Source: Candidatus Omnitrophota bacterium (lineage in GTDB: Bacteria > Omnitrophota > Gorgyraeia > Gygaellales > Profunditerraquicolaceae). From it: a stretch of 64,000 nt of DNA. This document shows, piece after piece, positions 3,630-54,031 of this stretch. Position 1 is the first letter of the stretch. Each line of letters begins with the position of its first letter. A program made the translations under genes and the position numbers. Under the pieces are notes generated by a model. The model made no database searches and had not been told where the DNA came from. It saw nothing but the letters and a program-made list of their open reading frames with translations. Where the stretch lies: assembly GCA_043812955.1 (NCBI GenBank), contig JBDRLN010000066.1:64885-128884 (forward strand), in the 5' to 3' direction.

Positions 3630-5051
3630 ATGAAAGATAAGAAGATGTTAATATTTATAATTTTTGTTTTGATTGCCGGATTTATATTTATTTATATCTC
3701 CCGGCCGATCCATAAACCCAAGTTGATCCTGCCCGGACAAACCAAGGGGGTCTTGGGATTAAACGATCAAATAGAACAGTTAAGAGGGGTGGTCCGCAGC
3801 CTTATTCAATTAGAGGGTGTTTTAAAGCAGCAGCTGGAAGAGCAAAAAATGAAGTTTGCCGACTTAGAAAAAAACTTTATGGGGGTAGTTTTCAATAACG
3901 AAGCTCTCAATAAAGAACTATCCTTGTTCAGGGCAGGCCTGGACTTCGCTAAACCTTTAAAACAGAGGCTGGTTTTAATAGAGGAGAAATTGGCTAATTT
4001 TGACTTTGCCCAAGGTAAAGAAAAGCAGATCATCAAACAACTTCAGGATATAAATAAATCTCTGGTTGCGGTTGATAATCAGATGCCCTGGTTTGTAAAT
4101 GAAGATAAATTATACCGCGTCAAGGCCCAAGCCCTGGAAAGCGAATTGGTCGGTATCAAACAGGACCTAAAGCAGGAGCAAATTAAAAGAGAGGCCTTGA
4201 GCCGGGAATTCAACGCTATAGACCTGGAGTTGAAAATGGCTAATAAGGCCAAGGCTTCTGCCGGTGAAAGAGCGGCAGCCCTGGAAAAGGAGACGGTTGA
4301 ACTTAAAAACAAAAATAGTTATTTAAACGAAGAAATAAAAAAAAGCGATCAGTCTTTAAAGGAGATTGCCAGGAGAGAGGCTCAGTTAATCCGGGATAAG
4401 GAAGGCCTGGCCAAAAATAAGCAAAAGCTGGAGGATGAGGTAGGCCGGCAATCCCAAGCTATAATCCCCTTAAAAGAAAAGAATAAGGAGTTAGCCGAAG
4501 AATTACTTAGCCTTAAGCGGGAACTGGATCAATTAAGCCGGGAGCGGCAGGTAATGCTCAAGGCGATGGATGAGGCCAAGGCGGCTATTTTAAATTATCA
4601 GAAGCTCCAGCAGGAGGTAGCGCGGCTGCAGACTCAGCTTGAGAAGGTAAATATTGATTACGCCGGCCTTAAAGAAGAATATAATTCGGCCCGGGAATCT
4701 ATTAAACAGGATAAACTGGAATTGGGTAGCCGGGCAGACCGGATATTGGTCCTGCAGGGAAAGACCGCTGATATAGATAATAAACTTATTGAACTGCAAT
4801 TAAAATATAAGGAGGCGGAGAAAGAATCCGTTTCCTTAAGAGAAGAGAATGTGGCTATTCAGCTGGAGAAGGAAGAGCTTGGCCTTGAGTTGAGCAGGAC
4901 AAAAGAAAAACTAGTTGAGCTGGATAGTAAGTTGCAACAGATCGGTAGTGTTTTTGGCGCAGGCCAAAGACTCGCTGAACCCATCGGGAAGAAGGTGGAT
5001 GTAAAATTAGTGCCGGAAGTCCAAATAAAATCAGCCGGAGAAGAAAAATGA
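3630..5051 (+). CDS. Membrane-anchored long coiled-coil protein (hypothetical)
   Basis: N-terminal TM helix followed by ~430 aa of heptad-like E/K/L/Q-rich sequence. No enzymatic motif recognised. Confidence 0.6.
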   Translation: MKDKKMLIFIIFVLIAGFIFIYISRPIHKPKLILPGQTKGVLGLNDQIEQLRGVVRSLIQLEGVLKQQLEEQKMKFADLEKNFMGVVFNNEALNKELSLFRAGLDFAKPLKQRLVLIEEKLANFDFAQGKEKQIIKQLQDINKSLVAVDNQMPWFVNEDKLYRVKAQALESELVGIKQDLKQEQIKREALSREFNAIDLELKMANKAKASAGERAAALEKETVELKNKNSYLNEEIKKSDQSLKEIARREAQLIRDKEGLAKNKQKLEDEVGRQSQAIIPLKEKNKELAEELLSLKRELDQLSRERQVMLKAMDEAKAAILNYQKLQQEVARLQTQLEKVNIDYAGLKEEYNSARESIKQDKLELGSRADRILVLQGKTADIDNKLIELQLKYKEAEKESVSLREENVAIQLEKEELGLELSRTKEKLVELDSKLQQIGSVFGAGQRLAEPIGKKVDVKLVPEVQIKSAGEEK

Positions 5052-5704: not shown

Positions 5705-7518
5705 CCGATAAAGAATTAGAGAATTTATTAATAAGGACTAAACTTTTAACCCAAGAAGAGCTTTTCCGGGCTGTTGATGAGATGAAAAAACTCAAGCGGC
5801 CTTTAGAAAAAGTTATTTTGGAAATATGTCTTCTCTCCCGTCCGGTGCTTTATGAGGCGATTGCCAAGCACCTGGGGTATGAATATATAAAACTTGAAGA
5901 GGTTGAGCCGGATCCGGAATTGATCAAAGTTATGCCTGAGGCCTTGGCCCGCCAGACCCAATCTGTCCCCATAAAAATAGAAAATAATACTCTGCATGTG
6001 GCGGTAACCGACCCCACTGACCTTTATTCCATTGACCAGATCCAGATGCATACCGGGATGGCTTTGGAGGTGGTTTTATCCAGTCCCCAGGAAATAGAGG
6101 ATAGGCAGAACAAGCTTTATGTAGATCACAGGGTTAACAAAGATTTCATGGAGGATCTGACTAGGGCGGTGTCTTCAGATGTCAAGATTGTATTTACCGA
6201 TGCAAGCTCTATAATTAAATTAGTTGACTTGATTGTTGCTCAGGCAGCGCATGACCGGGCCTCGGATATCCATATTGAGCCGGAACAAGAAATGACCCGG
6301 ATAAGGTTTCGGATCGACGGCATACTGCATGAAATACCGTCTCCCCCCAAGGAATGGGAACAGGCGATTGTCTCCAGGGTCAAGGTATTGGCAGGCATGG
6401 ATATCGCTGAAAGCCGGGTTCCCCAGGATGGGCATTTCCAGGCTAAGATAGAAGAAAGGATCATTGATTTTCGTGTTTCTACCGTGCCTACTATTTTCGG
6501 AGAAAATTTGGTTATGCGTTTATTGGATACGAATTCAGTAACCATCGGTTTGGAAAAATTAGGGTTTACTACTTATGATGAATTAAAAAGATATGAAGCT
6601 ATTATCTCTAGGCCTTACGGAATAATTTTATCAACTGGTCCTACGGGGAGCGGTAAAACCACCACTCTTTATTCAGCCTTGATGCGGATTAATACCATTG
6701 ATCGCAATATTATCACTATCGAAGACCCGGTTGAATACCGCCTCGGACTTATCCGGCAGATCCAGGTAAACCCTAAGGCCGGGATCACTTTTGCTAATGG
6801 GCTAAGGGCGATCCTGCGCCAGGATCCTGATGTTTTAATGGTCGGCGAGATCCGGGACCTGGAGACCGCCATAATCGCTATCCAGTCCGCCCTAACCGGA
6901 CATTTGGTCTTTTCCACCCTACATACTAATGATGCGCCTTCGGCAGTCACTCGTTTAGTCAATATGGGAGTTGAGCCTTTTTTGATCTCAGCTTGTTTGA
7001 TCGGAGTTATGGCCCAGCGCCTGATCCGGACCATCTGTGATAAGTGCAAAGAGTCTTACGAGCCATCTAAATCCCTAATAGAAAGATGGGGATTAAGCGA
7101 TAAAAAAGGAGTTGTTTTATACCGGGGTAAAGGATGTGATAATTGTAAAGGCACAGGTTTTCGGGGGCGCAGCGGGCTATTTGAATTAATGACAGTTGAT
7201 GATGAACTAAGAGAGATGATTATCTCGGAAAGCTCTACTGTTTTATTACGTAATAAATCCCGGGAAAAAGGCATGCGGGTTTTAAGCGAGGACGGGATCG
7301 CTAAGGCCCTGGCTGGCATCACTACTATTGAAGAAGTGGCCAGGGTATGCGAAGAGCGGGTGGAGATTAAAAAGACCGAAGAATCGGTAGTTAAGGTCGA
7401 GCCTTTTATTAAGACTGCGTCAACAGCTCAAAAATCCGGAGCTAAGCCTATAGAGGTTAAGGTCTCGGATTATGAAGAATACCAGAAGCGCATAGCTAAC
7501 TGGTTAAGCAATAAATAG
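5701..7518 (+). CDS. pilB: Type IV pilus assembly (extension) ATPase PilB/GspE family
   Basis: N-terminal T2SSE_N domain; Walker A GPTGSGKTTT; DPVEY; Walker B/His box (VGEIRD); tetra-Cys (CDKC...CDNC). It carries a ~60-aa C-terminal extension. Confidence 0.9.
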   Translation: MTDKELENLLIRTKLLTQEELFRAVDEMKKLKRPLEKVILEICLLSRPVLYEAIAKHLGYEYIKLEEVEPDPELIKVMPEALARQTQSVPIKIENNTLHVAVTDPTDLYSIDQIQMHTGMALEVVLSSPQEIEDRQNKLYVDHRVNKDFMEDLTRAVSSDVKIVFTDASSIIKLVDLIVAQAAHDRASDIHIEPEQEMTRIRFRIDGILHEIPSPPKEWEQAIVSRVKVLAGMDIAESRVPQDGHFQAKIEERIIDFRVSTVPTIFGENLVMRLLDTNSVTIGLEKLGFTTYDELKRYEAIISRPYGIILSTGPTGSGKTTTLYSALMRINTIDRNIITIEDPVEYRLGLIRQIQVNPKAGITFANGLRAILRQDPDVLMVGEIRDLETAIIAIQSALTGHLVFSTLHTNDAPSAVTRLVNMGVEPFLISACLIGVMAQRLIRTICDKCKESYEPSKSLIERWGLSDKKGVVLYRGKGCDNCKGTGFRGRSGLFELMTVDDELREMIISESSTVLLRNKSREKGMRVLSEDGIAKALAGITTIEEVARVCEERVEIKKTEESVVKVEPFIKTASTAQKSGAKPIEVKVSDYEEYQKRIANWLSNK

Positions 7519-7530
7519 GAATAGTAAATT

Positions 7531-8361
7531 ATGTATGAATCTTACTGGTGCCTTAAGGAAAAACCTTTTCAGAATACTCCCGACTCAAATTATTTATATT
7601 TATCCGGCCAGCATGAAGACGCGCTGATGAAGCTTAGTTATGTAGTGGCCCAGGATCTGGGGTGCGGCCTGCTTACCGGGGTATTTGGGTGCGGTAAGAC
7701 ATTGTTAGGCCGGGTAGTAGTTAATGGTCTGGGCAAAGACAGATACGCCTCGGCTTTTGTCAATTGCCTTACTGCGTCCGAGCCTGCGGAACTACTGCGC
7801 GCAATTGTCCGGAGTTTAAGCCCCCAATCTTTGCCGGAGAAGAAAACCGAGATAATGGCTGATTCCCTGCTGGAAAAACTGAATAATATATTATTGGATA
7901 ATATCCGCGACGGAAAACGCAATATAATAATAGTTGACGAGGCCCATACCATCGAAGACCCCCGGATATTCGAGCAATTGCGGATGATCCTGAATTTTCA
8001 GCAGGAGGATAAATTTCTGCTGACCCTCTTGATCTTCGGCCAGCCGGAGTTAAAAGATAAGGTTACTATCTCTAAACCCCTGGAACAGAGGATTGCGGTG
8101 CGCTGCCATTTAAACCCTTTTAGCGAAGAGGATGTTGGCAAATATATCCTGCACCGTTTAAAGATATCCGGAAGGCCTGATCCTTCGGCCGAGGTTTTTA
8201 CCAAGGAGGCGATAAAGTTTATCGCTAAATACTCCGGGGGCATCCCCCGCAGGATCAATACGCTTTGTGATCTGGTTTTAATGACCGGTTTTGCCAAGAA
8301 GGCCAACCAGATCGATCAGGACCTTGTGGAATTAGCGATCAAGGATTTTAACGTTACCTAA
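7531..8361 (+). CDS. ExeA/GspA-like AAA ATPase (AAA_22), short form without TM or peptidoglycan-binding region
   Basis: N-terminus MYESYWCLKEKPFQNTPDSNYLYLSGQHEDAL matches the ExeA signature. Walker A GVFGCGKT; Walker B IIIVDEAH. Confidence 0.75.
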   Translation: MYESYWCLKEKPFQNTPDSNYLYLSGQHEDALMKLSYVVAQDLGCGLLTGVFGCGKTLLGRVVVNGLGKDRYASAFVNCLTASEPAELLRAIVRSLSPQSLPEKKTEIMADSLLEKLNNILLDNIRDGKRNIIIVDEAHTIEDPRIFEQLRMILNFQQEDKFLLTLLIFGQPELKDKVTISKPLEQRIAVRCHLNPFSEEDVGKYILHRLKISGRPDPSAEVFTKEAIKFIAKYSGGIPRRINTLCDLVLMTGFAKKANQIDQDLVELAIKDFNVT

Positions 8362-41181: not shown

Positions 41182-41380
41182 TTGCGAGGAGAGGACCTTC
41201 CCGCTTAAATCATTTTATTATCTGAAGCGGGATCCCGACTATACAATGGTGGATACGGCGAGAACCTTTCTATTAATATATTGCGGGGGCATGATTTTCC
41301 CGCCAACATGATCTATAATCATAGCGGGATCTCGACTGTTCAATGGTGGAAATCGGGAGAACATGCCTATTTTAAATTAT
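41182..41380. repeat. Two tandem ~100-bp units of the GCGGGATCCCGAC repeat family, each starting with a degenerate copy of the tRNA-fMet 3' end
   Basis: ttgcgaggagagga (41182) and ttgcgggggcatga (41281) against the tRNA 3' end ttgcggggagagga (41381). Units share TTTCCCGC-N24-GCGGGATC(C/T)CGACT-N4-CAATGGTGGA-N5-G(C/G)GAGAAC. Confidence 0.75.
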
Positions 41381-41454
41381 TTGCGGGGAGAGGATTTGAA
41401 CCTCTGACCTCAAGGTTATGAGCCTTGCGAGCTACCAGGCTGCTCCACCCCGCG
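41381..41454 (-). tRNA. tRNA-fMet (anticodon CAU, initiator-type; CCA not encoded)
   Basis: Cloverleaf folds. CGCGGGGUGGAGCAGCCUGGUAGCUCG...GGUUCAAAUCC...CCCCGCAA closely follows the bacterial initiator tRNA. C1.A72 mismatch. Confidence 0.8.
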
Positions 41455-41519
41455 AAATTTCTACCCAAACAAAGAACAACGTAAACGTATTATAACTCAA
41501 AAAAATAAATAATCCAGGT

Positions 41520-43057: not shown

Positions 43058-43139
43058 TTATTGTTTTCTCCTTAGGTTATTGATTTAGGGGTGAAAGTAC
43101 ATTATACATACCAAACTACTACAGTCAAACAATATTTAT

Positions 43140-43332: not shown

Positions 43333-45027
43333 ATGAATTGGCGAAAAACCAAGGTGTTTTTTAAACTGCACTGGTTAGGTATCAGCGGTTCGATTGTTGT
43401 CATTGCCATAGCTATATCTTTCGTGTATTTCGTAAGCAGCGCTGTAAATGCCTGGATTACATCCGAGTCTTATTTCAAAAAATCACTTCTCGCCCAGAAT
43501 GCGATTTTCTTCTATATATTCCTGGTTTTGAATTTAATCACCCTGCCGTTAAGCGGTTTACTCTGGATATGGGTTATGAGGGGCGGGCATATGAAGTTTT
43601 CCCAGATAGGCAAAAAAGCGGTAAAGGGTAAAGAAATAAAAATACATTGGCAGGATGTTATCGGTATGGAAGAAGCCAAGGAAGAGGCGATGGAAGTGGT
43701 GCGTTTAGTTTCTGACCGGGCTAAACTGCAGGCAATCGGGGGCCAGATTTTAAGGGGGATATTAATGATCGGCCCTCCGGGCTGCGGCAAGACCTATTTA
43801 GCCAAAGCTATTGCTACCGAAGCAAATATGCCTTTTATTTCAATGTCCGGCTCAGAATTTATCGAGATGTTTGTGGGAGTAGGGGCCAGCCGGATCCGCA
43901 AACTTTTCAAACAGGCTCGGCAATTAGCCTATACAGACGGCGGCTGTATAATTTTTATTGATGAACTTGATGCGGTTGGGGCCCAGCGTTCAGTGGACCG
44001 GGGTTTTGGCGGCCAGACAGAATCCAACACTACTTTAAACCAATTGCTTATAGAAATGGATGGTTTAAAGGAAAAAGAACAAAACGTGATTATAATCGGG
44101 GCGACCAATGCGCCAGAAGGTTTCCTGGATCCTGCTTTGATAAGGCCGGGAAGATTTGACCGTAAAATTTATGTTAATCAGCCTAACCTGGAAGAGCGGG
44201 AGAAGCTATTTGAGTATTACATGAAAGAAGTCAAATGCGATGATACAGTAGACCGCCAGCGCATGGCCAGGCTAACCGTTGGCAATAGCCCTGCGGATAT
44301 CTCTAATCTTATCCGGGAAGCGGCTTTAATTGCCGTCAGAAACAGGAAAGAGCTGATTTCTATGAAAGAAATTTCTGAGGCCTATGATCGGGTGGAGATG
44401 GGCATAAAACATAAAATAGTCTTTGCCCAGAGCGACAGGGAGAAGATCGCTTATCATGAAGCCGGACATGCCATAGCTATGTATTTTCTGGCCCCTCATA
44501 AAGATGTTTTTAAGGCTACAATACTTGCCAGGGGCGGGGCCTTAGGGTTTGTTATGCCCCACCCGCGGGAAGAAATACATGTGCGCACTAAAGATCAATA
44601 CCTGGGGGATATTAAGGTCAGCCTGGGTTCTTATGCCGCAGAGAAATTAAAGCTTAAAATTACTACTTCCGGCGTGAGCCAGGATTTTACTAGTGCCATG
44701 CGGATTGCCCATCAGATGGTTTGGAATTGGGGTATGGGTAATTCCGGGTTAGTAGGTAATTACGGTTTATTGGCTTCTATGAACCAGGGGATGGGTGTAT
44801 TTAAAGGGGAAAATGTTTCTTATATTTCGGAAAAACTTAAAGAACAACTAAATAATGACGTCCAACAGATTATCAACGGATGTTTAAAAGAGGTGGATGA
44901 TCTTTTAAAACAGGAATCCGCTCTTCTTGAGCGTTTTGCCAAGGAACTGCTGGCCAAAGACGAATTAAATTATGATGAGATTGAAGCTATATTTAAAGAA
45001 TTCCATAAAGCCCGCCCTCCTATTTAA
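43333..45027 (+). CDS. FtsH-family ATP-dependent zinc metalloprotease, minimal form (two TM helices, no periplasmic domain)
   Basis: Walker A GPPGCGKT; Walker B IIFIDELD; SRH/arginine fingers; zinc motif HEAGHAI. The ATG at 43333 has a GGAG RBS; the track's start at 43315 lacks one. Confidence 0.8.
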
Positions 45028-45850
45028 TCTGATATTAATATTTTCGCTTTTTTTATCCGGCTGCGATAGTTCGATAAAGCCCACTTATAAAGAAGAAGAT
45101 ATCCCATTTCTGGTAAAGAAAATCTGTAAAGAAGAATATAAGCTGGATGTAATTACTAAAAGAAATCCTACTGCGCTATGGATTTATGCTCCTTTACAAA
45201 AGATCCTGCATAATGAATATGGTATCAAAGAAGGAAAGTTTTTTGATGAAGAGATTATGGAGAAAATGCGCAATATATTGACTACGGTAGGCAGGGTATT
45301 GATTAGTTCCGATAATGCCCCAGAATTCTTTGCCTTGTTGGCCTCGGATATTAATATCGGTATAGATTATACTATAATTAGCAGCGTTTTGGATTTAAAG
45401 AAATCTTATGCGGGATTTATCCCCTGGACCGAGGCTAACCGTAGGTATGTGGTTAGGTTGAAAGAAAACTCCGAGGCAATAAATGATAAGACTGGCCAGC
45501 ATCTAATAGCCGAAAAGATAGTTTTGCCTGATTTTTTGGCCGAGCAGATAGCCGGGAGGATAGGCAGCCATTTTCAGGGAGAAGCTTTAAAGGGGAGTTT
45601 TAAGGTAGATAAAGTAGATGGAGTTTTTGAAATTGATAGGTTTATATTTGAATATTCCATAAACCAGACTCAAGCCTTAAAAAATAAGATAGATCTGCAG
45701 AATGAGATAATAAAGATAGCGGCTTATTGTATCAAGACTTATGAGTTTAAGGATTTTTCAGCGGTGGAGTTAAAGGATTTGTTTACTAACGAGGAAACTG
45801 TAGTTGGTAAGGATTTTATCTGGTCCAGCCCGGTTAATGAGAGATTCTGA
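44972..45850 (+). CDS. Hypothetical lipoprotein
   Basis: Lipobox FLSGC. The start overlaps the ftsH end by 56 nt, so the start is uncertain. Confidence 0.5.
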   Translation: MMRLKLYLKNSIKPALLFNLILIFSLFLSGCDSSIKPTYKEEDIPFLVKKICKEEYKLDVITKRNPTALWIYAPLQKILHNEYGIKEGKFFDEEIMEKMRNILTTVGRVLISSDNAPEFFALLASDINIGIDYTIISSVLDLKKSYAGFIPWTEANRRYVVRLKENSEAINDKTGQHLIAEKIVLPDFLAEQIAGRIGSHFQGEALKGSFKVDKVDGVFEIDRFIFEYSINQTQALKNKIDLQNEIIKIAAYCIKTYEFKDFSAVELKDLFTNEETVVGKDFIWSSPVNERF

Positions 45851-46415
45851 TTCTTCTTCCTTTTAAGGAGAGCTTGCCGTCCAAAAATAATTTTATAGCC
45901 TTAGGATAGATCCCGTGTTCGATTTGATGAATTTTTTCCTCTAGAGAGCGGATAGTGTCGAACATATCTATTTTTACAGCCTCCTGAAGGATTATCGGGC
46001 CATGGTCTATTAATTCATCTACGAAATGAACGGTTACTCCGGTAATCCTGACTCCGTAATCAAGGGCATCTTTTATGCCCTGCCTTCCTTTAAAAGAAGG
46101 CAGGAGGCTGGGGTGGATATTGATGATCCGGTTTTTATGTTTTCGGATAAATTCCTTACTTAAGACCCGCATAAAACCAGCCAGGATAATTAAATGTACT
46201 TTTTCTTTCTTGATATATCCGGCGATTTTTGCTTCATTTGATTCCAGGATAACTTTTATACCCATATTTTTAGCCTTACTGATCACTGCTGCTTCTGGGT
46301 TATCGCAGACTAAAAGCGCGAGTCTGCATTTTAGTCTCCCCTTTTTAATTTCTTTAGCTATCGCTAAAAAATTGCTCCCCCGGCCTGAAGCGAATACCGC
46401 TATATTTTTATTCAT
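45834..46415 (-). CDS. purN: Phosphoribosylglycinamide formyltransferase
   Basis: FASGRGSN...HPSLLPSFKG...VHFVDE...D, the PurN motifs. Confidence 0.85.
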   Translation of the reverse strand: MNKNIAVFASGRGSNFLAIAKEIKKGRLKCRLALLVCDNPEAAVISKAKNMGIKVILESNEAKIAGYIKKEKVHLIILAGFMRVLSKEFIRKHKNRIINIHPSLLPSFKGRQGIKDALDYGVRITGVTVHFVDELIDHGPIILQEAVKIDMFDTIRSLEEKIHQIEHGIYPKAIKLFLDGKLSLKGRRIRISH

Positions 46416-46474
46416 ATCATCGCCTTTACTTTACCTATACCTCTACCTATACAAAATATTGCCGAGTTTATTTA

Positions 46475-47260
46475 TTACCTAATTCGAATTGTCTTCGCGG
46501 GGCATACCTTAACGCAATCCCCGCAGGAAATGCATTTATTATAGTTTATAATTGCCAAATTATCAACTATATGTATCGCGTCGTACTTGCAGGTTTTTTC
46601 GCAAATCCGGCAGGCAATGCATCCCACAGAACAGACTATCCTGGTATCTTTTCCTGGATCGCGGGAACTACAGGCAACATATACAGATGAAGAATAAGGC
46701 CCAAGAAAAAAAAGTTTTTTAGGGCATACTTCTACGCATTTATTGCAGGCAAGGCATTTTTGACTATCTATTACCGGTAGAAATTCCTTCGACATCTTAA
46801 TTGCCCCAAAAGGGCAAACCCTAGAGCAATCACCAAACCCTAAACACCCGAAAAAACATTCTTTTTGCCCGCCCAGAGCGAGGATAGCCTCCGAGCAGTT
46901 TATAAGGCCGGTATAGGAAAATTTATCTTTTACTTTTATACCACCATTGCAGCGCAGGATAGCGTTAAGCCGTATCTTTTTGTCCAGTTTCTGCCCTAAT
47001 ACTTTAGCAATTTCTTGTTTATTATTGTCCGTGTTTACTTTACACTTTTGAATATCTATCTCTCCGGATAGCAGGCCTTCCGCAAAACCTAAGCAACCGG
47101 CTTTGCCGCAGGCGCCGCAGTTAGCTCCTGGCAGAAGGGTCAATATCTTATCGAGCCGGGGGTCGCCAGTAACAGAAAACTTTTTTGAGGCTAGGATTAA
47201 ACCTATGCCAAATGCTAATCCCAGCCCGCCCAATATTAATGCGGGTATTATTATATCCAT
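46475..47260 (-). CDS. rnfB: Rnf/ion-translocating ferredoxin:NAD+ oxidoreductase subunit B
   Basis: N-terminal TM helix, CGAC...C cluster and two 4Fe-4S ferredoxin motifs. Confidence 0.85.
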   Translation of the reverse strand: MDIIIPALILGGLGLAFGIGLILASKKFSVTGDPRLDKILTLLPGANCGACGKAGCLGFAEGLLSGEIDIQKCKVNTDNNKQEIAKVLGQKLDKKIRLNAILRCNGGIKVKDKFSYTGLINCSEAILALGGQKECFFGCLGFGDCSRVCPFGAIKMSKEFLPVIDSQKCLACNKCVEVCPKKLFFLGPYSSSVYVACSSRDPGKDTRIVCSVGCIACRICEKTCKYDAIHIVDNLAIINYNKCISCGDCVKVCPAKTIRIR

Positions 47261-47384
47261 AGTTAGCGTAAAGTGTAAAACGCCTGAAAATGGGAACAGG
47301 ATTATTTTTCTTTATTCTGCTTGCTCGTAAAAAATAATTCCGATCCCATTAGCGCTCTAAGCTTATTCTTAATTCTCATTTTTC

Positions 47385-47993
47385 CTAGAATCTAAACCCA
47401 TTGAATCCCATAAAACTCAAGCTCATAATCGAAGCAATAATAAAGGCAATGGGGAATTCTTTTAAAGCCTTAGGCACATAGCAATAGTCAAGCCTTTCTC
47501 TTATGCCGGACATCAGTAACATTGCCAGTGCATAACCTAAGCCTACCGAGATACCCTGAAAAACAGAATAGGCAAAGCTTCCCGGCACAGCAATATTTTT
47601 TAGAAAGAACATTTCTGAGTTTAAAACTGCCACTCCCATGACAGCGCAATTACAGGTTATCAAGGGTAGGTATATTCCGAAAGCCCTGTAAATTGCTGGG
47701 TTGGCCCTTTTAATCACGATTTCCACTAACTGAACAAAAGCGGCAATCACCAGGATAAATGATACAGTGCGTAAATAGGTTATGTCAAAAGGGATGAGTA
47801 AGTATCTATAAATAACCCAGGTTATAGCTGAAGACATTGTTGTAACAAACATAACTGCCAGGCTCATGGCCAATGCCGGTTTGGTTTCTTTGGAGATGGC
47901 GATAAAAGGGCATAATCCTAGAAAGCGCGAGAGGATTACATTGTAAATAAAAACGCTTGAAATAAATATGTTAAGGAATTGAGAGGGGTTCAT
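47385..47993 (-). CDS. rnfA: Rnf complex subunit A
   Basis: RnfA/NqrE-type six-TM protein. Confidence 0.85.
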   Translation of the reverse strand: MNPSQFLNIFISSVFIYNVILSRFLGLCPFIAISKETKPALAMSLAVMFVTTMSSAITWVIYRYLLIPFDITYLRTVSFILVIAAFVQLVEIVIKRANPAIYRAFGIYLPLITCNCAVMGVAVLNSEMFFLKNIAVPGSFAYSVFQGISVGLGYALAMLLMSGIRERLDYCYVPKALKEFPIAFIIASIMSLSFMGFNGFRF

Positions 47994-48069
47994 CCCGCAC
48001 CTTCCTTTTTATTTATAATTCTAAAACCATTTGTTTTAAAGTCATTTAATCTTTTGGAAGGTGCGGGAT
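47994..48069. repeat. 76-nt intergenic element IE1 (TCCCGCACCTTCC-N50-GGAAGGTGCGGGA) between rnfE and rnfA
   Basis: ~80% identical to the element at 50138-50213. The terminal 13-nt arms are perfect inverted repeats. Confidence 0.7.
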
Positions 48070-48663
48070 TCATGCTTTCCTGTTCTTTAAAAGGTTAAAA
48101 AAACCCAGTAATAAACCAATCACTAATAATGCGCCCGAAGGCATAGCTATTAATGATATTGGTTCAAAGCCCTTGATCAGGCTATAGCCCATAATCTGGC
48201 CGGCGCCTAATAATTCCCGTATAGCTGAAATTAGAATCAAGGCCAAGGTAAAACCAATACCCATGCCTAAGCCGTCCAGCAGGCAATTTAATAATCTATT
48301 TTTACTGGCAAAGGCTTCAGCCCGGCCCAGGACAATGCAATTTACCACGATCAGGGGGACATAAATCCCCAATGCCCGGTTAAGCGCCGGGCTATAAGCT
48401 TTCATTAACAATTCGGTAATGGTAACAAAGGTAGCGATCACTACTACGAAACAAGGGATACGTATTTTATTTGGGATAAAGTTTTTGATTAAAGAGATGA
48501 TTATGTTTGAGCCCAAAAGGACAAAAGTCGAAGCAATGCCCATGCCTATCCCGTTAATTACCGATACTGACACTGCCAGGGTCGGGCATAGCCCCAGGGC
48601 CAGGACAAAGGTCGGGTTCTCCTTAATAATTCCTTTTATAAATTCCCTATAAGAATTATTCAT
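48070..48663 (-). CDS. rnfE: Rnf complex subunit E
   Basis: RnfE/NqrD-type membrane protein. Confidence 0.85.
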   Translation of the reverse strand: MNNSYREFIKGIIKENPTFVLALGLCPTLAVSVSVINGIGMGIASTFVLLGSNIIISLIKNFIPNKIRIPCFVVVIATFVTITELLMKAYSPALNRALGIYVPLIVVNCIVLGRAEAFASKNRLLNCLLDGLGMGIGFTLALILISAIRELLGAGQIMGYSLIKGFEPISLIAMPSGALLVIGLLLGFFNLLKNRKA

Positions 48664-49623
48664 TTATTTAGTTCCATAAATCCTGCTCTTAGTATATCTA
48701 TCAATAATCGGCGCTGCCGCGTTCATTATCAATATGGAATAGCATACGCCTTCGGCAGAACCGCCCCATAACCGGATAATTATAGTGAACAGCCCGCAGC
48801 CGATGCCGAAAAATATTTGTCCTTTGCGGGTCAATGGAGAAGTAACATAATCTGTAGCCATAAAAAAAGCGCCCAGAATAAGCCCGCCGGATAAAATATG
48901 GAATAACCAGTCTCCGCTAAAATAACCTTTTGGCCCGAATACATAAGCCAATAAACCCACGGTTATTATATAAGGAATAGGGATGTGCCAGGATATATAA
49001 CCTTTAAGTAAAAGAAATATCGCGCCTAAAATAAGGGCTAGTATAAATATCTCGCCGATACAACCTGCTTTATTTCCCAGGAACAAATCTAGGTAGGATA
49101 GGTTATTTAGGGTTCCGCCTTCTTTTATTAAGGTCAGGGGGGTTGCCTGGGTTATGGCATCATAATTAAACCCAGCCCCTGCGTGCAGGGGCTGGGTAAA
49201 AGCTGTCATGTATTTTGGCCAGGAGGCAACCAAAAAAGCCCTTCCGACTAATGCTGGATTGAATATATTCTGGCCTAAACCTCCAAAAACAAACTTGCCT
49301 ATTGCGATAGCGAAAAAGGAACCGGCAATCGGTAGCCAAAAAGGGGTGTTGGGAGGCAGGTTATAACTTAAAAGTAACCCGGTTAAAAAAGCGCTTCCGT
49401 CAAAAATAGCAATTTTTCTTTTGAAGAGTTTTTGTAAGAATAATTCACTGAGTAAGGCAGAGGTTATTCCCAGGATAATCGTCCAAAGCGCGCTGAGACC
49501 GAAAATATATATTCCGAAAAGACCTGTCGGGATCAAGCTGATAATTACCAGCCACATTATTTTGTTAGTGGATTCCCGGGTGTGGATGTGGGGCGAAGAA
49601 GATACAATTAGCTTATTTGGCAT
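48664..49623 (-). CDS. rnfD: Rnf complex subunit D
   Basis: NqrB/RnfD-type polytopic membrane protein. Confidence 0.8.
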   Translation of the reverse strand: MPNKLIVSSSPHIHTRESTNKIMWLVIISLIPTGLFGIYIFGLSALWTIILGITSALLSELFLQKLFKRKIAIFDGSAFLTGLLLSYNLPPNTPFWLPIAGSFFAIAIGKFVFGGLGQNIFNPALVGRAFLVASWPKYMTAFTQPLHAGAGFNYDAITQATPLTLIKEGGTLNNLSYLDLFLGNKAGCIGEIFILALILGAIFLLLKGYISWHIPIPYIITVGLLAYVFGPKGYFSGDWLFHILSGGLILGAFFMATDYVTSPLTRKGQIFFGIGCGLFTIIIRLWGGSAEGVCYSILIMNAAAPIIDRYTKSRIYGTK

Positions 49624-50137
49624 TTTTTAATAACTCCGTAATTTCAGAAGCCTTATTTTTAACAGAATCAATAACTGCCTTGGAAGATATAGTTGCTCCG
49701 GTAATAGCCTGGATATCGCTCATCTCAGACACGGACCTATCAATAAACCGTCCTGTAAAATTTGGCTCGTTTATTTGACTGCCTAATCCGGGAGTCTCGC
49801 TATGGTTTAAGATCTTGATTGCGGTAATTTTGTTTTTGGTGTTCATGCCTACGAGGGTAGTAATAGTTCCGGAATAACCCTGGATTACGGCTTTAAAGGC
49901 GATACCGACAAGTTTTATGTTTTTATCTACGGCTTTGTAATAAACTGTTTCATTATTTAATTTCATTGGTTCAAAAGAGATGCCTTCAGGCAGGACTTCT
50001 TTTAAGCTGCTTTCCTCTTTCAAAGTTTCCTGGGCCATGATTTTTGAGATGGTAAAAAAATTTACTAAAGCTAATAATCCGGCAGCCAAAAAGCAGATCA
50101 GGCTTAAGGTAAGGCTACAACGCAAAGATTCTTTCAC
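49613..50137 (-). CDS. rnfG: Rnf complex subunit G (FMN-binding)
   Basis: N-terminal TM helix and FMN_bind motif (ITGATISS). GTG start next to IE2. Confidence 0.8.
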   Translation of the reverse strand: MKESLRCSLTLSLICFLAAGLLALVNFFTISKIMAQETLKEESSLKEVLPEGISFEPMKLNNETVYYKAVDKNIKLVGIAFKAVIQGYSGTITTLVGMNTKNKITAIKILNHSETPGLGSQINEPNFTGRFIDRSVSEMSDIQAITGATISSKAVIDSVKNKASEITELLKNAK

Positions 50138-50213
50138 CCCGCACCTTCTTTCTTATTCATAATACTAAAACTATTTGTCTTAAAATGATTTAATATTTTA
50201 GATGGTGCGGGGT
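50138..50213. repeat. 76-nt intergenic element IE2 between rnfC and rnfG, a copy of IE1
   Basis: CCCCGCACCTTC...GATGGTGCGGGG. Same length and internal sequence as IE1. Confidence 0.7.
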
Positions 50214-51503
50214 TCATAGTAATTCCTTTTTTGCTCTTTTTATGGATTGAACCAAGTTACGATTTGCCGGGCAGACGAAACTACATATCCCGCATTCAAT
50301 ACAGTCTAATGCGCCGTTTAATTTAGTTTGTTCCCAGAGTTGTTTTTCCGAAGCCAGGTTTATCAAGCAGGGCATTAAGCCCATCGGGCATTCCCGGATA
50401 CAGGCTCCGCAGCGGATACAGAAATCCTCTTCGTACGGCTTAGCCTCTTTTTCATTAAGCAGGATGACCCCGGAGGTAGTTTTAATAGCCGGGACTGTAT
50501 CGGTATATTGGGTAATACCCATCATCGGTCCTCCGATTATTATTTTTGCCGGTTTTTCTTTTACCGGAACGCAGAAATCAATCAGGTTTTTTATAGGAGT
50601 ACCGATCCTGGTGAGAATATTCTTGGGGCTGGTAAGGCAACTGCCAGTTACAGTAATAACCCTTTCATATAAAGGTTTCTTTAGATAAACTGCTTCATAA
50701 ATCGCGAATACCGTAGCAATATTTTGAATTATTACCCCTAAATCAAAAGGGAGTTTATTTCGGGGTATTTCCTTACCTAATATATTTTTTATAAGTTGTT
50801 TTTCGCTGCCTTGCGGGTAAGCGCTTTTTAATACTTTTACTGTGAACTGTGAACTGTGAGCTGTGAACTTATCAATGGCTTCAGGTTTATTATCCTCAAT
50901 AGCGATATACATATTTTTCACCCCTAGGCATTTAGCGGTTAATTCTATGCCTAGGAGTATTTCTTGGGTTTTCTCAATCATCAGACTATAGTCGGCGCTA
51001 AGATATGGTTCGCATTCCGCGGCATTAATAATTAGGGTTTCTATCTGCTTTGGAGGATTAAGTTTGATATGGGTGGGAAATCCTGCTCCACCCATGCCTA
51101 CGATACCGGCCTCGAATATAATATCCCGGATTTGTTGGGGAGTTAGCTGATCCAGCAAGGAAGGCGCCCGGTGTCCGGTGTCCTGGTGTCCTGGTGCCTT
51201 GGTGTCGGATAAATCCTTAAAATTATTTTCAATGACTATTGCCTGTGAGCGGCCAAGGGTTGGATGCGGCCAATTCTTTATATCAATAACCGTTCCCGAA
51301 ACAGAAGAATGGATAGGCGCGTATACCTGCGCTTGAACATCAGCGATTTTTTGTCCTAGGGTTACCTCTTCACCAATTTTTACTAAAGGCAGACAGGGTT
51401 TACCGATGTGCTGACTCAAAGGTATATAAACTTTAGATGGCGAAGGCGCTGGTTGGGTAGTGATGTTTTTTGTCCTATCTTTATTTTCGGTTAATCTAAC
51501 CAT
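50214..51503 (-). CDS. rnfC: Rnf complex subunit C
   Basis: NADH-binding region and two ferredoxin motifs (CIRCGACIRECP; CIECGICSFVCP). Carries two internal tandem-repeat insertions. Confidence 0.85.
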   Translation of the reverse strand: MVRLTENKDRTKNITTQPAPSPSKVYIPLSQHIGKPCLPLVKIGEEVTLGQKIADVQAQVYAPIHSSVSGTVIDIKNWPHPTLGRSQAIVIENNFKDLSDTKAPGHQDTGHRAPSLLDQLTPQQIRDIIFEAGIVGMGGAGFPTHIKLNPPKQIETLIINAAECEPYLSADYSLMIEKTQEILLGIELTAKCLGVKNMYIAIEDNKPEAIDKFTAHSSQFTVKVLKSAYPQGSEKQLIKNILGKEIPRNKLPFDLGVIIQNIATVFAIYEAVYLKKPLYERVITVTGSCLTSPKNILTRIGTPIKNLIDFCVPVKEKPAKIIIGGPMMGITQYTDTVPAIKTTSGVILLNEKEAKPYEEDFCIRCGACIRECPMGLMPCLINLASEKQLWEQTKLNGALDCIECGICSFVCPANRNLVQSIKRAKKELL

Positions 51504-52747
51504 GAGAGCTTGTGATTGATAATAAAATTAATTAATCCTAGAACGCTGATTATGCTGCCTACGGCAGTAAGTATGAATAATGGGGGTATTTTATCAGCGA
51601 GTATGCTGCTGATGAACATAAAAATCAGGAAACCCAGGTGCATTACTATTTCCATCGAGCTGAAGATCTTGCCCATCATATGATTAACGCTAGCCCTATG
51701 AATAATAGTGTTTGAGGCTATCATGATAGGGGCTGTCGTCAGGCCCAGAGTCAACGAGAGGATGATTGCCAGCGAAAAGTGCGGGTAATGATTTATTCCT
51801 GAGGCAAAGACAATCAGCATTATTCCGGTTAAGGTAAGCGAGGTGAATATTGTCTTGTATTGGGATAGCTTTTGGCCAAAACGGCCATAGGCCAAAGACC
51901 CCAAGAGCAGGCCTAAGCCTAAGAACATAGCCAGCAACCCTAAGTCTTTAGTCGCTGAATGCAGGCTTTTCTGGACAAAGACTATTATTACCACATATAC
52001 TGCGCCTAATGCTGACCAAAGAGTGAATATTATCCCGGTAGTGAACCTAATGTTTTTATTTCTGATAAAATACAACGTCCCTTCTTTTATCTCGGCAAAT
52101 ACCGATTTCTTGATCACATCAACGATCTCTTTGCCTACTTCTTTAAGGCTAATCTGGGAGCTCGCTCTTTTAGCGATCGAGAATATCAATAATCCTGAGA
52201 CCAGGAAACTTAATGAGTCTAAATAAAATCCGCTTTTAGCTCCTACCCATTCCACTATTACGCCGCTGATACCAAATCCTAAAATAGCCGCGATCATCCC
52301 GGTGATATTGACCAGTGAATTAGCTATAAGTAAGTCTTTTTTTTCCACCAGGTCGGGGATTATGGAAAGTTTTGCCAGGACAAAAAATCTGCCGATTGAA
52401 AAAACCAAGAATATAATCAGGTAGATTACCCAGGTCAGGCTTTTACTGTAGAATAAAAATAAAGGGATAGTCAAGACTAGGGCTGCCCGTAATAAATCGC
52501 ACGTATACATAACCTTGCGTCTGTTCCACCGGTCAACGTATACGCCAGCTATAGGGCCAATGATAAAAACCGGGATTATGGTAAAAGAGAGTATTTTAGC
52601 GATTTCGATCGCTGAACCAGGAGTTCGGGAATAAACAAAAGCGATTAAAGCCATCTGGTCCAGCCGGTCGCCCAGCTGGGATATGATCTGGCCTATCCAG
52701 AGGAGAAAGAAATTCCTGTTTTTTAATATTTTTCTGAATTGGGACAT
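51491..52747 (-). CDS. MFS transporter (12 TM helices)
   Basis: Hydropathy. Loop GDRLDQ and D-RWNRR motifs between TM2 and TM3. Confidence 0.75.
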   Translation of the reverse strand: MSQFRKILKNRNFFLLWIGQIISQLGDRLDQMALIAFVYSRTPGSAIEIAKILSFTIIPVFIIGPIAGVYVDRWNRRKVMYTCDLLRAALVLTIPLFLFYSKSLTWVIYLIIFLVFSIGRFFVLAKLSIIPDLVEKKDLLIANSLVNITGMIAAILGFGISGVIVEWVGAKSGFYLDSLSFLVSGLLIFSIAKRASSQISLKEVGKEIVDVIKKSVFAEIKEGTLYFIRNKNIRFTTGIIFTLWSALGAVYVVIIVFVQKSLHSATKDLGLLAMFLGLGLLLGSLAYGRFGQKLSQYKTIFTSLTLTGIMLIVFASGINHYPHFSLAIILSLTLGLTTAPIMIASNTIIHRASVNHMMGKIFSSMEIVMHLGFLIFMFISSILADKIPPLFILTAVGSIISVLGLINFIINHKLSWLD

Positions 52748-52750
52748 TTG

Positions 52751-52956
52751 AATATTTTTCTGGAACCGATGAGTGGAATTTCCCGCTGATTAGCCGTAAT
52801 TGTCAAGCGGGATCCCGACCGAGCAATATAAATGTCGGGAGAACCACTGGTTATTTAAAGCCGGCGGGGGGAGTTTCCCGCCCTCAGTTCTCAAAAAGTA
52901 GGCGGGATCCCGACTATGCAATAGTGAGTCTCGGGAGAACCCTCCTAATATTTTTC
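52751..52956. repeat. 30-bp direct repeat of the tRNA-Thr 3' end (52751-52780, 29/30 identical to 52947-52976) followed by two tandem ~95-bp units of the GCGGGATCCCGAC repeat family
   Basis: aatatttttctggaaccgatgagtggaatt against aatatttttctggagccgatgagtggaatt. The units match those at 41182-41380. Confidence 0.8.
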
Positions 52957-53032
52957 TGGAGCCGATGAGTGGAATTGAACCACCGACCTTGACTTTACGA
53001 AAGTCCTGCTCTACCAACTGAGCTACATCGGC
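52957..53032 (-). tRNA. tRNA-Thr (anticodon CGU; CCA encoded)
   Basis: 7-bp acceptor stem GCCGATG/CATCGGC. D, anticodon (UUCGUAA loop) and T arms fold. Confidence 0.8.
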
Positions 53033-53261
53033 AAAATTTTTTGACTTGCGAATCCTATACCGTTATAATACTTGTTCTCAAGGCTTAGCAGGTGAGCTAC
53101 GCCGGCAACCTGAATTACTGCATTAATTTTAATTATAACAATTTTTACCCAATAGTCAATCTAAGAAGGAGGTAATATAGGGCAGATAATTATATTGCGC
53201 TTATGCTTAATACTATATATAATACACCTATAAATAATTCTAAAAAGACCGGAGGAAAAAT

Positions 53262-53870
53262 ATGGCTAAAAAATTTCTAATTTTATTATCTTTTATATTT
53301 CTTTCTATCCCGTTTGCTTTTGCCGACGAATCCATAACCCTGGCTACCTATTATCCTTCACCTTATGGAAGCTATTATAATTTCTCATCTTCTAATAATG
53401 TTACCTTGGCTAATGTTGTCGGAAGCAGGGTCGGCATCGGAACGTTGGCTCCGGGTGAAAAACTTGAAGTTAATGGGGCGATTAAATTTACCGTGGACGC
53501 CAGCGTTATTTCTAAAGCGCCTCGAGTGATTTATACGCCGGATAATAGGGCAGGATGCCCTCCGGCCGCAGCCGCCAATACTGATCTATACGGGCAAACT
53601 TTTACACTAGCCCGTAGCGCAACTGTAGTTGTCGCAGTAGATACGATAACAACTTATACCACACGTACAGATACAGCTCTTTATGTTGATGGTGTATCAA
53701 GGCGAAGCACACTAACAGATACAACAAGTGCTTCGTGGAAGCCAGTTCATATAATTTGGGGTGGAACGTTAGCGGCTGGTGCACATACTGTGTCGATTCG
53801 ATCTTCGATTGCAAATACCGTTGGTTGTGGCACGACTTGGGGAGGAATTACAACGACAATCTATGAATAG
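53262..53870 (+). CDS. Secreted Thr/Gly-rich protein with a tail-fibre-like VGIGTxxPxEKLxVNG motif (hypothetical)
   Basis: Signal peptide. The motif RVGIGTLAPGEKLEVNGAIKF is common in fibre and adhesin-like proteins. A TTGACT-N17-TATAAT promoter lies at about 53040. Confidence 0.55.
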   Translation: MAKKFLILLSFIFLSIPFAFADESITLATYYPSPYGSYYNFSSSNNVTLANVVGSRVGIGTLAPGEKLEVNGAIKFTVDASVISKAPRVIYTPDNRAGCPPAAAANTDLYGQTFTLARSATVVVAVDTITTYTTRTDTALYVDGVSRRSTLTDTTSASWKPVHIIWGGTLAAGAHTVSIRSSIANTVGCGTTWGGITTTIYE

Positions 53871-54031
53871 GTAAAAAGAAAATAAAATTAGAGTACATTT
53901 TTATTTTCTTAGATTTACCCTCCCTTACGTCAATTGATAGTAAAGAGGAGGGTTTTTTTTGATAAATTGTCGTTGAAGAACGGCGTATTTAGTAGTAAAA
54001 TACAAAAAATGAACGAATTTATTTGGAACGT

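Follow-up and report, generated by a model that had tools for sequence, protein, structure and literature searches.

Mycobacterial interspersed repetitive units (MIRUs) insert at start codons and carry an internal open reading frame (ORF) that is coupled at −4 (PMC12548453). Tetranucleotide direct repeats, filled and empty sites, and ORFs that overlap the neighbouring genes have all been described for them (PMC3184786). In the summaries of Supply et al. (1997) given in PMC12548453 and PMC3184786, this ORF overlap is thought to render the insertion harmless via translational coupling. Coupling through RNA unfolding has been described for E. coli rpmI-rplT, for the coat and lysis genes of phage MS2, and for genes VII/IX of phage f1 (PMC12548453). 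Here, we analysed two structured spacers, IE1 and IE2, in the rnf operon of a Candidatus Omnitrophota bacterium. The operon lies within a 64-kb stretch of contig JBDRLN010000066.1 (assembly GCA_043812955.1), hereafter the window, which provides the numbering for all coordinates below; the rnf genes and both elements are on the minus strand. IE1 and IE2 are likely to be copies of a non-autonomous, palindromic mobile element, similar to a miniature transposable element with inverted repeats (MITE), that occurs widely across a clade of Candidatus Omnitrophota, and coupling of the genes on either side probably survives its insertion. That the spacers are mobile repeats can be said with high confidence. 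The step by which coupling would be maintained, re-initiation followed by unfolding of a hairpin, is predicted from the sequence and is one towards which we lean with far less assurance.

The IE1 spacer (47994-48069) separates rnfE from rnfA and the IE2 spacer (50138-50213) separates rnfC from rnfG. Each is the precise 76-nt interval from a TGA stop to an ATG or GTG start. The original prediction had described them as equal in length and about 80% identical, which is correct (13 mismatches in an ungapped alignment, 83% identity). Its statement that each abuts the upstream stop and the downstream start also holds, although the element as defined by its inverted repeats lies one base off, at 47993-48068 for IE1 (terminal T to terminal A; nhmmer with the family profile, E = 9.5e-14) and 50137-50212 for IE2 (terminal C to terminal G; E = 1.4e-15). 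The downstream start codon takes its first base, A in IE1 and G in IE2, from the end of the element. A perfect 13-nt inverted repeat had been claimed for both, and is found in IE1 only. There, the 5′ repeat UCCCGCACCUUCC (48056-48068), which begins 1 nt past the rnfE stop, pairs at 13/13 positions with the 3′ repeat GGAAGGUGCGGGA (47993-48005), the last base of which is the A of the rnfA AUG. In IE2, the 5′ repeat CCCCGCACCAUCU (50200-50212) pairs at 12/13 positions, with one A.A mismatch, with the 3′ repeat AGAAGGUGCGGGG (50137-50149), whose terminal base forms the G of the rnfG GUG. In shuffled sequence, the expected number of matches to CCCGCACCWTCY-N(40-60)-RGAAGGTGCGGG is 0.00. A repeat search and the family profile found two copies in the window, IE1 and IE2; near-matches to the arm at 28473 and 57477 lie within coding sequence and are due to chance.

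Both elements are flanked on either side by a direct repeat of TGAA, as expected of a target-site duplication. The left copy at IE1 (48069-48072) contains the TGA stop of rnfE and, together with A48073, a vestigial ancestral ATG, as judged from the empty sites of relatives (xxATGA[AG]c). The right copy (47989-47992) consists of the TG of the rnfA start and the AA of codon 2. At IE2, the left copy (50213-50216) likewise contains the rnfC stop, and the right copy (50133-50136) is made up of the TG of the rnfG GTG and the following AA.

Comparison with related operons placed these insertions in context. Thirty related loci were compared, and 26 Omnitrophota species representatives share the synteny MFS-rnfC-G-D-E-A-B-purN, where MFS denotes a major facilitator superfamily transporter gene. 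In 20 of 23 relatives, rnfC and rnfG overlap by 4 nt (ATGA). The same holds for rnfE-rnfA in 18 of 26, with six more in which the genes overlap or abut; a large rnfE-rnfA spacer is absent in 24 of the 26. The empty sites of these relatives read ..ATGAAagaRatg.. and ..ATGA[AG]c.., and their sequence equals that of the window minus the element and one TGAA. The closest relative, L001 (L numbers label the compared relative and metagenome loci), has an RnfA that is 89% identical and also carries the 76-nt element at rnfC-rnfG (7767-7842), orthologous to IE2. This copy differs from IE2 at nine positions and from IE1 at only six. The rnfE-rnfA spacer of L001 is 91 nt long; its 3′ end is still GAAGGTGCGGGATG and its 5′ arm has decayed to ATTCCATACTTTTTC, although the Shine-Dalgarno (SD) sequence and start codon are retained. 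Because it is absent from most orthologous operons and decaying in others, the element is not a conserved rnf regulator. The rnf-specific function that had been proposed finds no support, given the same observations and the copies at unrelated gene starts. Most probably, the element is selfish and close to neutral, rather than a selected regulator of rnf, and the operon probably still works despite the insertions.

Two further observations were made at the rnfE-rnfA junction. In L011, rnfA lacks an insertion and starts ATGAACCCCGCACAG (3970-3984), a 13-nt identity to the left flank plus the beginning of the 5′ arm (ATGAAC-CCCGCAC), which is possibly due to chance, or possibly a hint on target preference or on the origin of the arm. 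In L003, L004 and L005, three independent assemblies of the same species, the contigs end 61 nt upstream of rnfA, inside the rnfE-rnfA spacer, as expected when a repeat confuses assemblers.

IE1 and IE2 belong to a dispersed family. Its members have an AT-rich core of 45-55 bp between terminal inverted repeats of about 12-13 bp (YCCCGCACCTTCY ... RGAAGGTGCGGGR; consensus YCCCGCACCTTCT / AGAAGGTGCGGGR), and they duplicate 4 bp of the target, in most cases TGAA; the aligned consensus is ATGAAC-CCCGCACCTTCT-TTATATTCAA...AAGGYGYGGGTTT...ATGAATAAAGGAGAAGGTGCGGG-GTGAA. IE1, IE2 and two copies in L001 form a subfamily with its own core, and sister subfamilies have CCCGTTAGA or CCCGCCCTTTC arms. The same architecture, sometimes with other cores or arms (CCCGTTAGAG/CTCTAACGGG, CCCGCCCTTTCT), occurs in named Omnitrophota metagenome-assembled genomes (MAGs). 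It was located at the rnf junctions rnfC-rnfG (L001), rnfE-rnfA (L018 and L012), rnfB-purN (L012) and rnfG-rnfD (L013), and at one non-rnf junction of L012.

A metagenome scan with the two arms only, leaving the flanks unconstrained, matched at least 120 loci. Among the matches listed, about 35 lie in contigs of 36-49% GC, all with the full architecture, and about 80 lie in GC-rich contigs, where their GC-rich interiors and random flanks mark them as chance matches. Viral contigs served as a negative control, and all 26 of their 26 matches were of the chance type. In ~0.59 Mb of related low-GC loci, the family profile gave 47 unique matches. Of these, 28 are directly at ORF starts, about nine involve a short gene (rpmJ) or tandem arrays at starts, and about ten are elsewhere in intergenic sequence. 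The flanking genes are unrelated housekeeping genes, including trpB/trpA, kdsA/kdsD, rpmF/plsX, rplP/rpmC, infA/rpmJ, argC/argJ, metG, radA and hisG. The search for further copies that the original prediction had recommended was thus productive, with the family dispersed over many genes in several Omnitrophota genomes. No paper on this repeat family, or on any Omnitrophota repeat, was found in the literature, and the family is previously undescribed.

Some sister-subfamily copies, with arms CCCGTTAGA.. or CCCGCCCTTTCT and duplications of TTTA or TAAA, lie in frame inside coding sequences. They were found in rnfB (L012 7191-7241 and L014 7191-7238), in rpmC (L095 5762-5809) and in a XerC/D-like recombinase gene (L089), and the insertions contribute peptides such as NPVRNT...ISNGV. 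At one and the same rnfB position, the arm type differs between L012 and L014.

Evidence for mobility came from the flanks, from a filled and an empty site, and from tandem arrays. Identical 4-bp flanks surround 31 of 43 unique elements with complementary arms (TGAA in 24, TAAA/TTTA in five, TTAG in one and TGAG in one). A third copy of the IE1/IE2 subfamily was detected by the family profile in the divergent eno/ftsH spacer of L001 (14800-14879). The window has an empty TGAA target at exactly this point (43092-43095, plus strand), reading TTGATTTAGGGG-TGAA-AGTACATTATACAT, and the filled site of L001 reads TTGATTTATGGC-TGAA-[element]-TAAA-AATATATTATACAT, so that the flanks agree on both sides. 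In L097, L064, L087 and L089, two elements are arranged around one shared RTGAA, which indicates repeated insertion into a duplicated target. IE1 and IE2 accordingly resemble MITEs in their terminal inverted repeats, target-site duplication, length of 76 bp without a transposase gene, dispersed copies, and presence or absence at orthologous sites, and DDE-type transposition is the mode of movement that these features suggest. Tandem or nested arrays of two to three elements were also seen (e.g., L097 1473-1662), sometimes with an extra duplicated 3′ arm (..AAAGGTGCGGGATGAATAGGAAAGAAGGTGCGGGGTGAA).

On the minus-strand RNA, the order of features is UGA, A, the 5′ arm YCCCGCACCWUCY, an AU-rich core of 50 nt that contains a small hairpin of its own, the 3′ arm RGAAGGUGCGGGR, and UG. 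Folding of this strand, another check that had been recommended, yielded a helix of 13-14 bp between the arms, with minimum free energies of −34.0 (IE1) and −28.2 kcal/mol (IE2) and z-scores against dinucleotide shuffles of −8.1 and −6.5, respectively. The GAAGGUG of the 3′ arm (48004-47998 in IE1, 50148-50142 in IE2) reads as a Shine-Dalgarno sequence, with 6 nt from its internal AGG to the start codon. Since the predicted helix pairs the 3′ arm and the start base, both the downstream ribosome-binding site (RBS) and the start codon would be sequestered if the hairpin forms in vivo. A G-rich motif in the middle of the element, AAGGYGYGGG, resembles the 3′ arm and is present in 16 copies of family alignment A2 (24 copies). 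By its sequence, it could base-pair with the 5′ arm in place of the helix that would sequester the SD.

The arrangement suggests how an essential junction might absorb such an insertion. The element would have entered the ancestral ...A|TGAA... overlap, in which the TGA stop is nested in the ATG of the next gene, and duplicated the TGAA. The left copy would keep the upstream stop codon, while the right TG and the last base of the element (A or G) would recreate the start codon in its original frame, with the 3′ repeat bringing GAAGGUG as a new Shine-Dalgarno sequence. The hairpin would then keep this SD and start codon out of reach of free ribosomes. From the old ATG, which continues to overlap the upstream TGA, a 27-codon ORF whose own TGA overlaps the new start would run over the full element. 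On a transcript that presumably spans the whole operon, ribosomes leaving rnfC or rnfE may re-initiate at the old ATG, melt the hairpin as they move along the mini-ORF, and be delivered to the start of rnfG or rnfA. One original ATGA hand-over would become two hand-overs in series, and the coupling would outlive the 76-nt insertion.

Several counts bear on this proposal. The mini-ORF of IE1 (47990-48073; 27 codons, MNPAPSKRLNDFKTNGFRIINKKEGAG and stop) begins with an ATG that overlaps the rnfE TGA and ends with a TGA that overlaps the rnfA ATG; the chance that it would be open with a shuffled interior is 0.085. That of IE2 (50134-50217; 27 codons, MNPAPSKILNHFKTNSFSIMNKKEGAG and stop) overlaps the rnfC TGA and the rnfG GTG in the same way, with a corresponding chance of 0.083. 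Both elements thereby have a MIRU-like position, with a 27-codon ORF and ATGA-type overlaps at both ends. It is the only ORF in the element, the ends of its peptide are set by the repeats, and no transposase gene is present. The mini-ORF is also open in the L001 rnfC-rnfG copy. Across the family, the ORF is open in 9 of the 11 in-frame copies, where 1.4 would be expected, and a relay of stops and starts runs through to the start of the gene in 13 of 27 copies (expected, 3.4±1.7). The frame of the old start (frame 0) is free of stops in 12 of 27 copies, whereas the remaining two frames are so in 0 and 4. In several copies that are out of frame, the ORF stops at an internal consensus ATGAAT, the ATG of which is in frame with the terminal TGA (e.g., MNKGEGAG and stop). 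The sequence data suggest a preference for translation that begins at the old start and continues through the element. An in-frame bridging ORF was also considered as a universal property of the family and rejected, as element lengths fall in all three frames; such ORFs are enriched, not obligatory.

A number of findings weigh against this interpretation. Identical 4-bp flanks are missing from 12 of the 43 elements, most of which are one base off, and two of which are TGAA-duplicated with CC..GG ends. Neither an autonomous element nor a transposase or transposase-sized ORF beside solitary ends was found in the ~0.59 Mb of related low-GC loci. The copy count from the 64-kb window alone is two. 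Relative to the gene downstream, the 16 copies with the G-rich motif are all oriented alike, which is not expected of simple DDE transposition and points to selection or an unusual mode of targeting. The relay is not universal (13 of 27 copies) and element lengths are unbiased over the three frames (13/11/9). IE1, IE2 and the L001 rnfC-rnfG copy share ancestry, and their open mini-ORFs are not independent evidence. Finally, a modelled hairpin of −28 to −34 kcal/mol could lower the output of rnfG and rnfA or be cleaved by RNase III.

The left flank of nearly every copy in the family is itself a start codon (ATGAA or GTGAA), which identifies the target as the TGAA of the start-codon context RTG-AAx. 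Where upstream genes do not overlap, they end a few bases before the old start (rplP>rpmC, lysS>lolE-like, ftsK>next gene), and in L069 the old start has its own SD and lies 80 nt downstream of the preceding gene. In the window, TGAA at starts makes up ~2% of all TGAA sites, and ~23% of the sites in non-coding sequence plus starts. The start-codon bias is strong and may stem from targeting or from selection. The terminal pair is C..G in 28 of 43 copies and T..A in eight, and a 5′ C accompanies GTG starts and a 5′ T accompanies ATG starts in 36 of the 43. This covariation was examined as proof of RNA pairing and set aside, since it fits a requirement for inverted repeats equally well.

It is conceivable, though we hold this only tentatively, that the family is adapted or actively targeted to start codons and could be called a ‘start-codon-regenerating’ MITE. 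The donated start base, the SD in the repeat, the relay mini-ORF, and the internal ATGAAT as a second ATGA hand-over would all be parts of such an adaptation. This would allow the family to spread, with no polar effects, into essential, tightly coupled operons (those of ribosomal proteins, of rnf and of aminoacyl-tRNA synthetases) in a phylum that is streamlined and uncultivated.

An alternative that accepts mobility replaces DDE cut-and-paste with another mechanism. A HUH/Y1 enzyme could move the element as a single-stranded hairpin, in the manner of REP/RAYT or IS200/IS605, or its spread could be a start-codon-directed process based on end homology, with a target that looks like the 3′ end of the element itself (SD, spacer, RTGAA). 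In keeping with this, the whole element is one hairpin, the RTGAA bias is strong and the orientation fixed, the native RBS of L135, agaaggtgaggggATGAA, is nearly identical to the 3′ end of the element, and no DDE partner was found in the loci scanned. However, identical 4-bp flanks of varying sequence (TGAA, TAAA, TTTA, TTAG, TGAG) are the signature of duplication at a staggered cut, and a conserved GTAG-type tetranucleotide is absent. HUH elements are not known to make such target duplications. We consider a mechanism of this kind unlikely. Two known classes of element were also tried and rejected. The IS5 end (GGAAGGTGCGAA...) resembles the arm, but this sequence faces inward here, with CCCG outermost, and the duplication is not YTAR. 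An integron attC site would have RYYYAAC/GTTRRRY cores, which are lacking, and the rnf operon is not a cassette array.

A second alternative is that the spacers are intra-operon RNA elements selected by the host, either a REP-like signal for processing or stability, as the original prediction had it, or a regulator that occludes the RBS and sets the levels of Rnf subunit blocks. The hairpins are very stable and well placed, the predicted fold sequesters the SD and start codon, and the position of IE2 is common to L001; moreover, REP-type and Correia-type hairpins affect mRNA decay (PMC3184786). Weighed against this, the same junctions are empty in most relatives, the gene persists in L001 with a decayed rnfE-rnfA 5′ arm, and identical elements stand at unrelated gene starts and in one intergenic spacer. 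Decoupling of membrane from soluble subunits had been offered as a purpose, which does not suit IE1, as it separates two membrane subunits, RnfE and RnfA. No Rfam family applies: a scan of 45000-54000 with Rfam 15 at E ≤ 1 gave only tRNA and one sub-threshold small RNA match, both outside the elements. The description as REP/BIME-like is apt insofar as the spacers are repeated, structured, REP-like intergenic elements, and fails as strict membership given the target duplication, terminal inverted repeats, 76-nt length and 50-nt core. We regard host selection for such a function as improbable.

An internal promoter or transcription attenuator in the AT-rich core, also raised by the original prediction, is very improbable. 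The core does contain promoter-like sequence: IE1 has a weak 9/12 match (ATGACT-16-TAGAAT), and TTTAAA-17-TATAAA can be read in it by eye. However, the region as a whole has 21 sigma-70-like matches against 17±3.4 in shuffles, IE2 has none, and the family alignment shows no conservation of promoter hexamers. The hairpin is not followed by a U-run, the 3′ arm being succeeded by AUGAACCCC or GUGAAAGAA, and a terminator scan gave no terminator-like match inside IE1 or IE2. With no U-tract, the elements are neither intrinsic terminators nor attenuators.

An equally faint prospect is a purely local duplication or gene conversion between the two junctions, which would suit the two copies in 64 kb, the core that IE1 and IE2 share with their subfamily, and the greater similarity of IE1 to the L001 rnfC-rnfG copy (six differences) than to the L001 rnfE-rnfA spacer, but which as a full explanation is already refuted by dozens of copies at unrelated loci in several genomes, by the third subfamily copy in L001 at a site empty in the window, and by duplicated flanks that differ in sequence among copies. 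Conversion between the two rnf junctions may nevertheless have happened.

The host operon, rnfC-G-D-E-A-B, extends over 46475-51503 on the minus strand, with an overlapping MFS gene before it and purN after it. NCBIfam assignments identified the MFS transporter gene (51491-52747), rnfC (50214-51503), rnfG (49613-50137, with a GTG start), rnfD (48664-49623), rnfE (48070-48663), rnfA (47385-47993) and rnfB (46475-47260). The overlap of the MFS gene with rnfC by 13 nt and the position of purN directly downstream are a clade-wide arrangement. Also conserved across the clade is the order in which G precedes D, in place of the usual C-D-G-E-A-B; L029 has the D-G order. The remaining junctions had been described as lacking any spacer, which is accurate for MFS-rnfC (−13), rnfG-rnfD (−11) and rnfD-rnfE (0) and inaccurate for rnfA-rnfB, which has a 124-nt spacer (47261-47384).

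This rnfA-rnfB spacer is predicted to fold into one long hairpin with imperfect pairing (−28.8 kcal/mol, z −2.1). The 85-nt spacer of L001 at this junction, also a hairpin, is unrelated to it, and most relatives have no spacer there. In five species, the junction is filled by a conserved element of 105-170 nt with three hairpins, bounded by GTGAGG...GTGCTCATTAA (L006 5320-5424; L007 3110-3266; L008 1420-1534; L011 4576-4745; L024 ~6598-6744). It had no match in Rfam and may represent either a further family of mobile palindromes or a structured RNA. Other fillers occur at rnfD-rnfE (69 nt in L006, 87 nt in L028, 141 nt in L012, 174 nt in L018 and 305 nt in L021) and at rnfA-rnfB (131 nt in L018 and 153 nt in L021). 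These are long palindromes of short tandem motifs, such as CTTTCAGC/GCTGAAAG or GTTCGCG/CGCGAAC. The rnf operons of the clade seem to accumulate several kinds of hairpin insertion at gene boundaries.

The window also contains repeats associated with tRNA genes, at 41227-41372 and 52800-52950 on the minus strand, just downstream of tRNA-Met (41380-41455) and tRNA-Thr (52957-53032), respectively. Each tRNA has two units of ~97 nt, and each unit consists of two adjacent hairpins (GGTTCTCCCGA..TCGGGATCCCGC..GCGGGAAA). The last 30 nt of tRNA-Thr are repeated, with 52751-52780 matching 52947-52976 at 97%, which gives an att-like duplication around a 196-bp insert. A half-site of IE1 and IE2 had been noted to recur in these repeats. 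On comparison, the two have only a CCCGC/GCGGG core in common and belong to different families.

These results account for the structured rnf spacers of identical length without a new regulatory system. They also caution annotators of Omnitrophota MAGs that a repeat family leaves its footprints as spacers of this kind, unusual GTG starts, short ‘MNPAPS...’ ORFs and contigs broken at gene starts. The transposase would be of interest as a site-selective enzyme, should real targeting underlie the start-codon bias. In addition, the element may serve as a natural ‘bicistronic design’ cassette with which to compare unfolding and re-initiation models of coupling.

Among known systems, REP/BIME sequences are likewise repeated extragenic palindromes, often located between the genes of one operon and forming hairpins in mRNA. 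They differ in being imperfect palindromes of ~35 nt that are linked to RAYT and have a conserved 5′ tetranucleotide, with no terminal repeat or target duplication. Correia/CREE elements of Neisseria, ERIC of enterobacteria, and RUP are closer in that they are non-autonomous, dispersed elements of ~70-150 bp with terminal inverted repeats, a target duplication and long RNA hairpins, often found beside or between genes. Their duplication is TA, however, they are not tied to start codons, and the features for which they are noted are promoters, IHF sites and cleavage by RNase. No Correia/CREE, ERIC or RUP element is known to rebuild a stop codon, SD and start codon. Rickettsia palindromic elements (RPEs) are palindromic repeats that survive in essential genes by keeping the frame open (PMC10969869), as does the sister subfamily with CCCGTTAGA arms in rnfB (L012, L014), rpmC (L095) and the recombinase gene (L089). 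RPEs are ~150 bp long and mainly intragenic, whereas the window copies are intercistronic and stand at translation initiation sites. The proposed hand-over also resembles classic coupling by RNA unfolding, in which a downstream RBS is locked in a helix with a strand of the upstream ORF and translation of the latter opens it; here, the helix would be supplied ready-made by a mobile element and bridged by a mini-ORF, rather than evolved in place.

The closest analogue is the mycobacterial MIRU, as judged by architecture and not as a claim of membership. Both are small repeats (40-100 bp) found in operons at start codons or intercistronic junctions, with tetranucleotide direct repeats, filled and empty sites, and an internal ORF that overlaps the stop and start of its neighbours (−4). 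The Omnitrophota element belongs to a different phylum, and the base composition of the organisms differs. Its copies are mostly single or in short arrays of two to three, not in long arrays of the variable-number tandem repeat type, and about half have the coupled ORF. Unlike in MIRUs, the SD and the new start codon's first base lie within its terminal repeats of 12-13 bp, which are predicted to fold into an RBS-sequestering hairpin. The family would thus provide an independent example, from a distant phylum, of the MIRU principle that a mobile repeat can live in essential operons if coupling is preserved. The solution appears especially complete here, in that stop codon, SD and start codon would all be rebuilt by the insertion.

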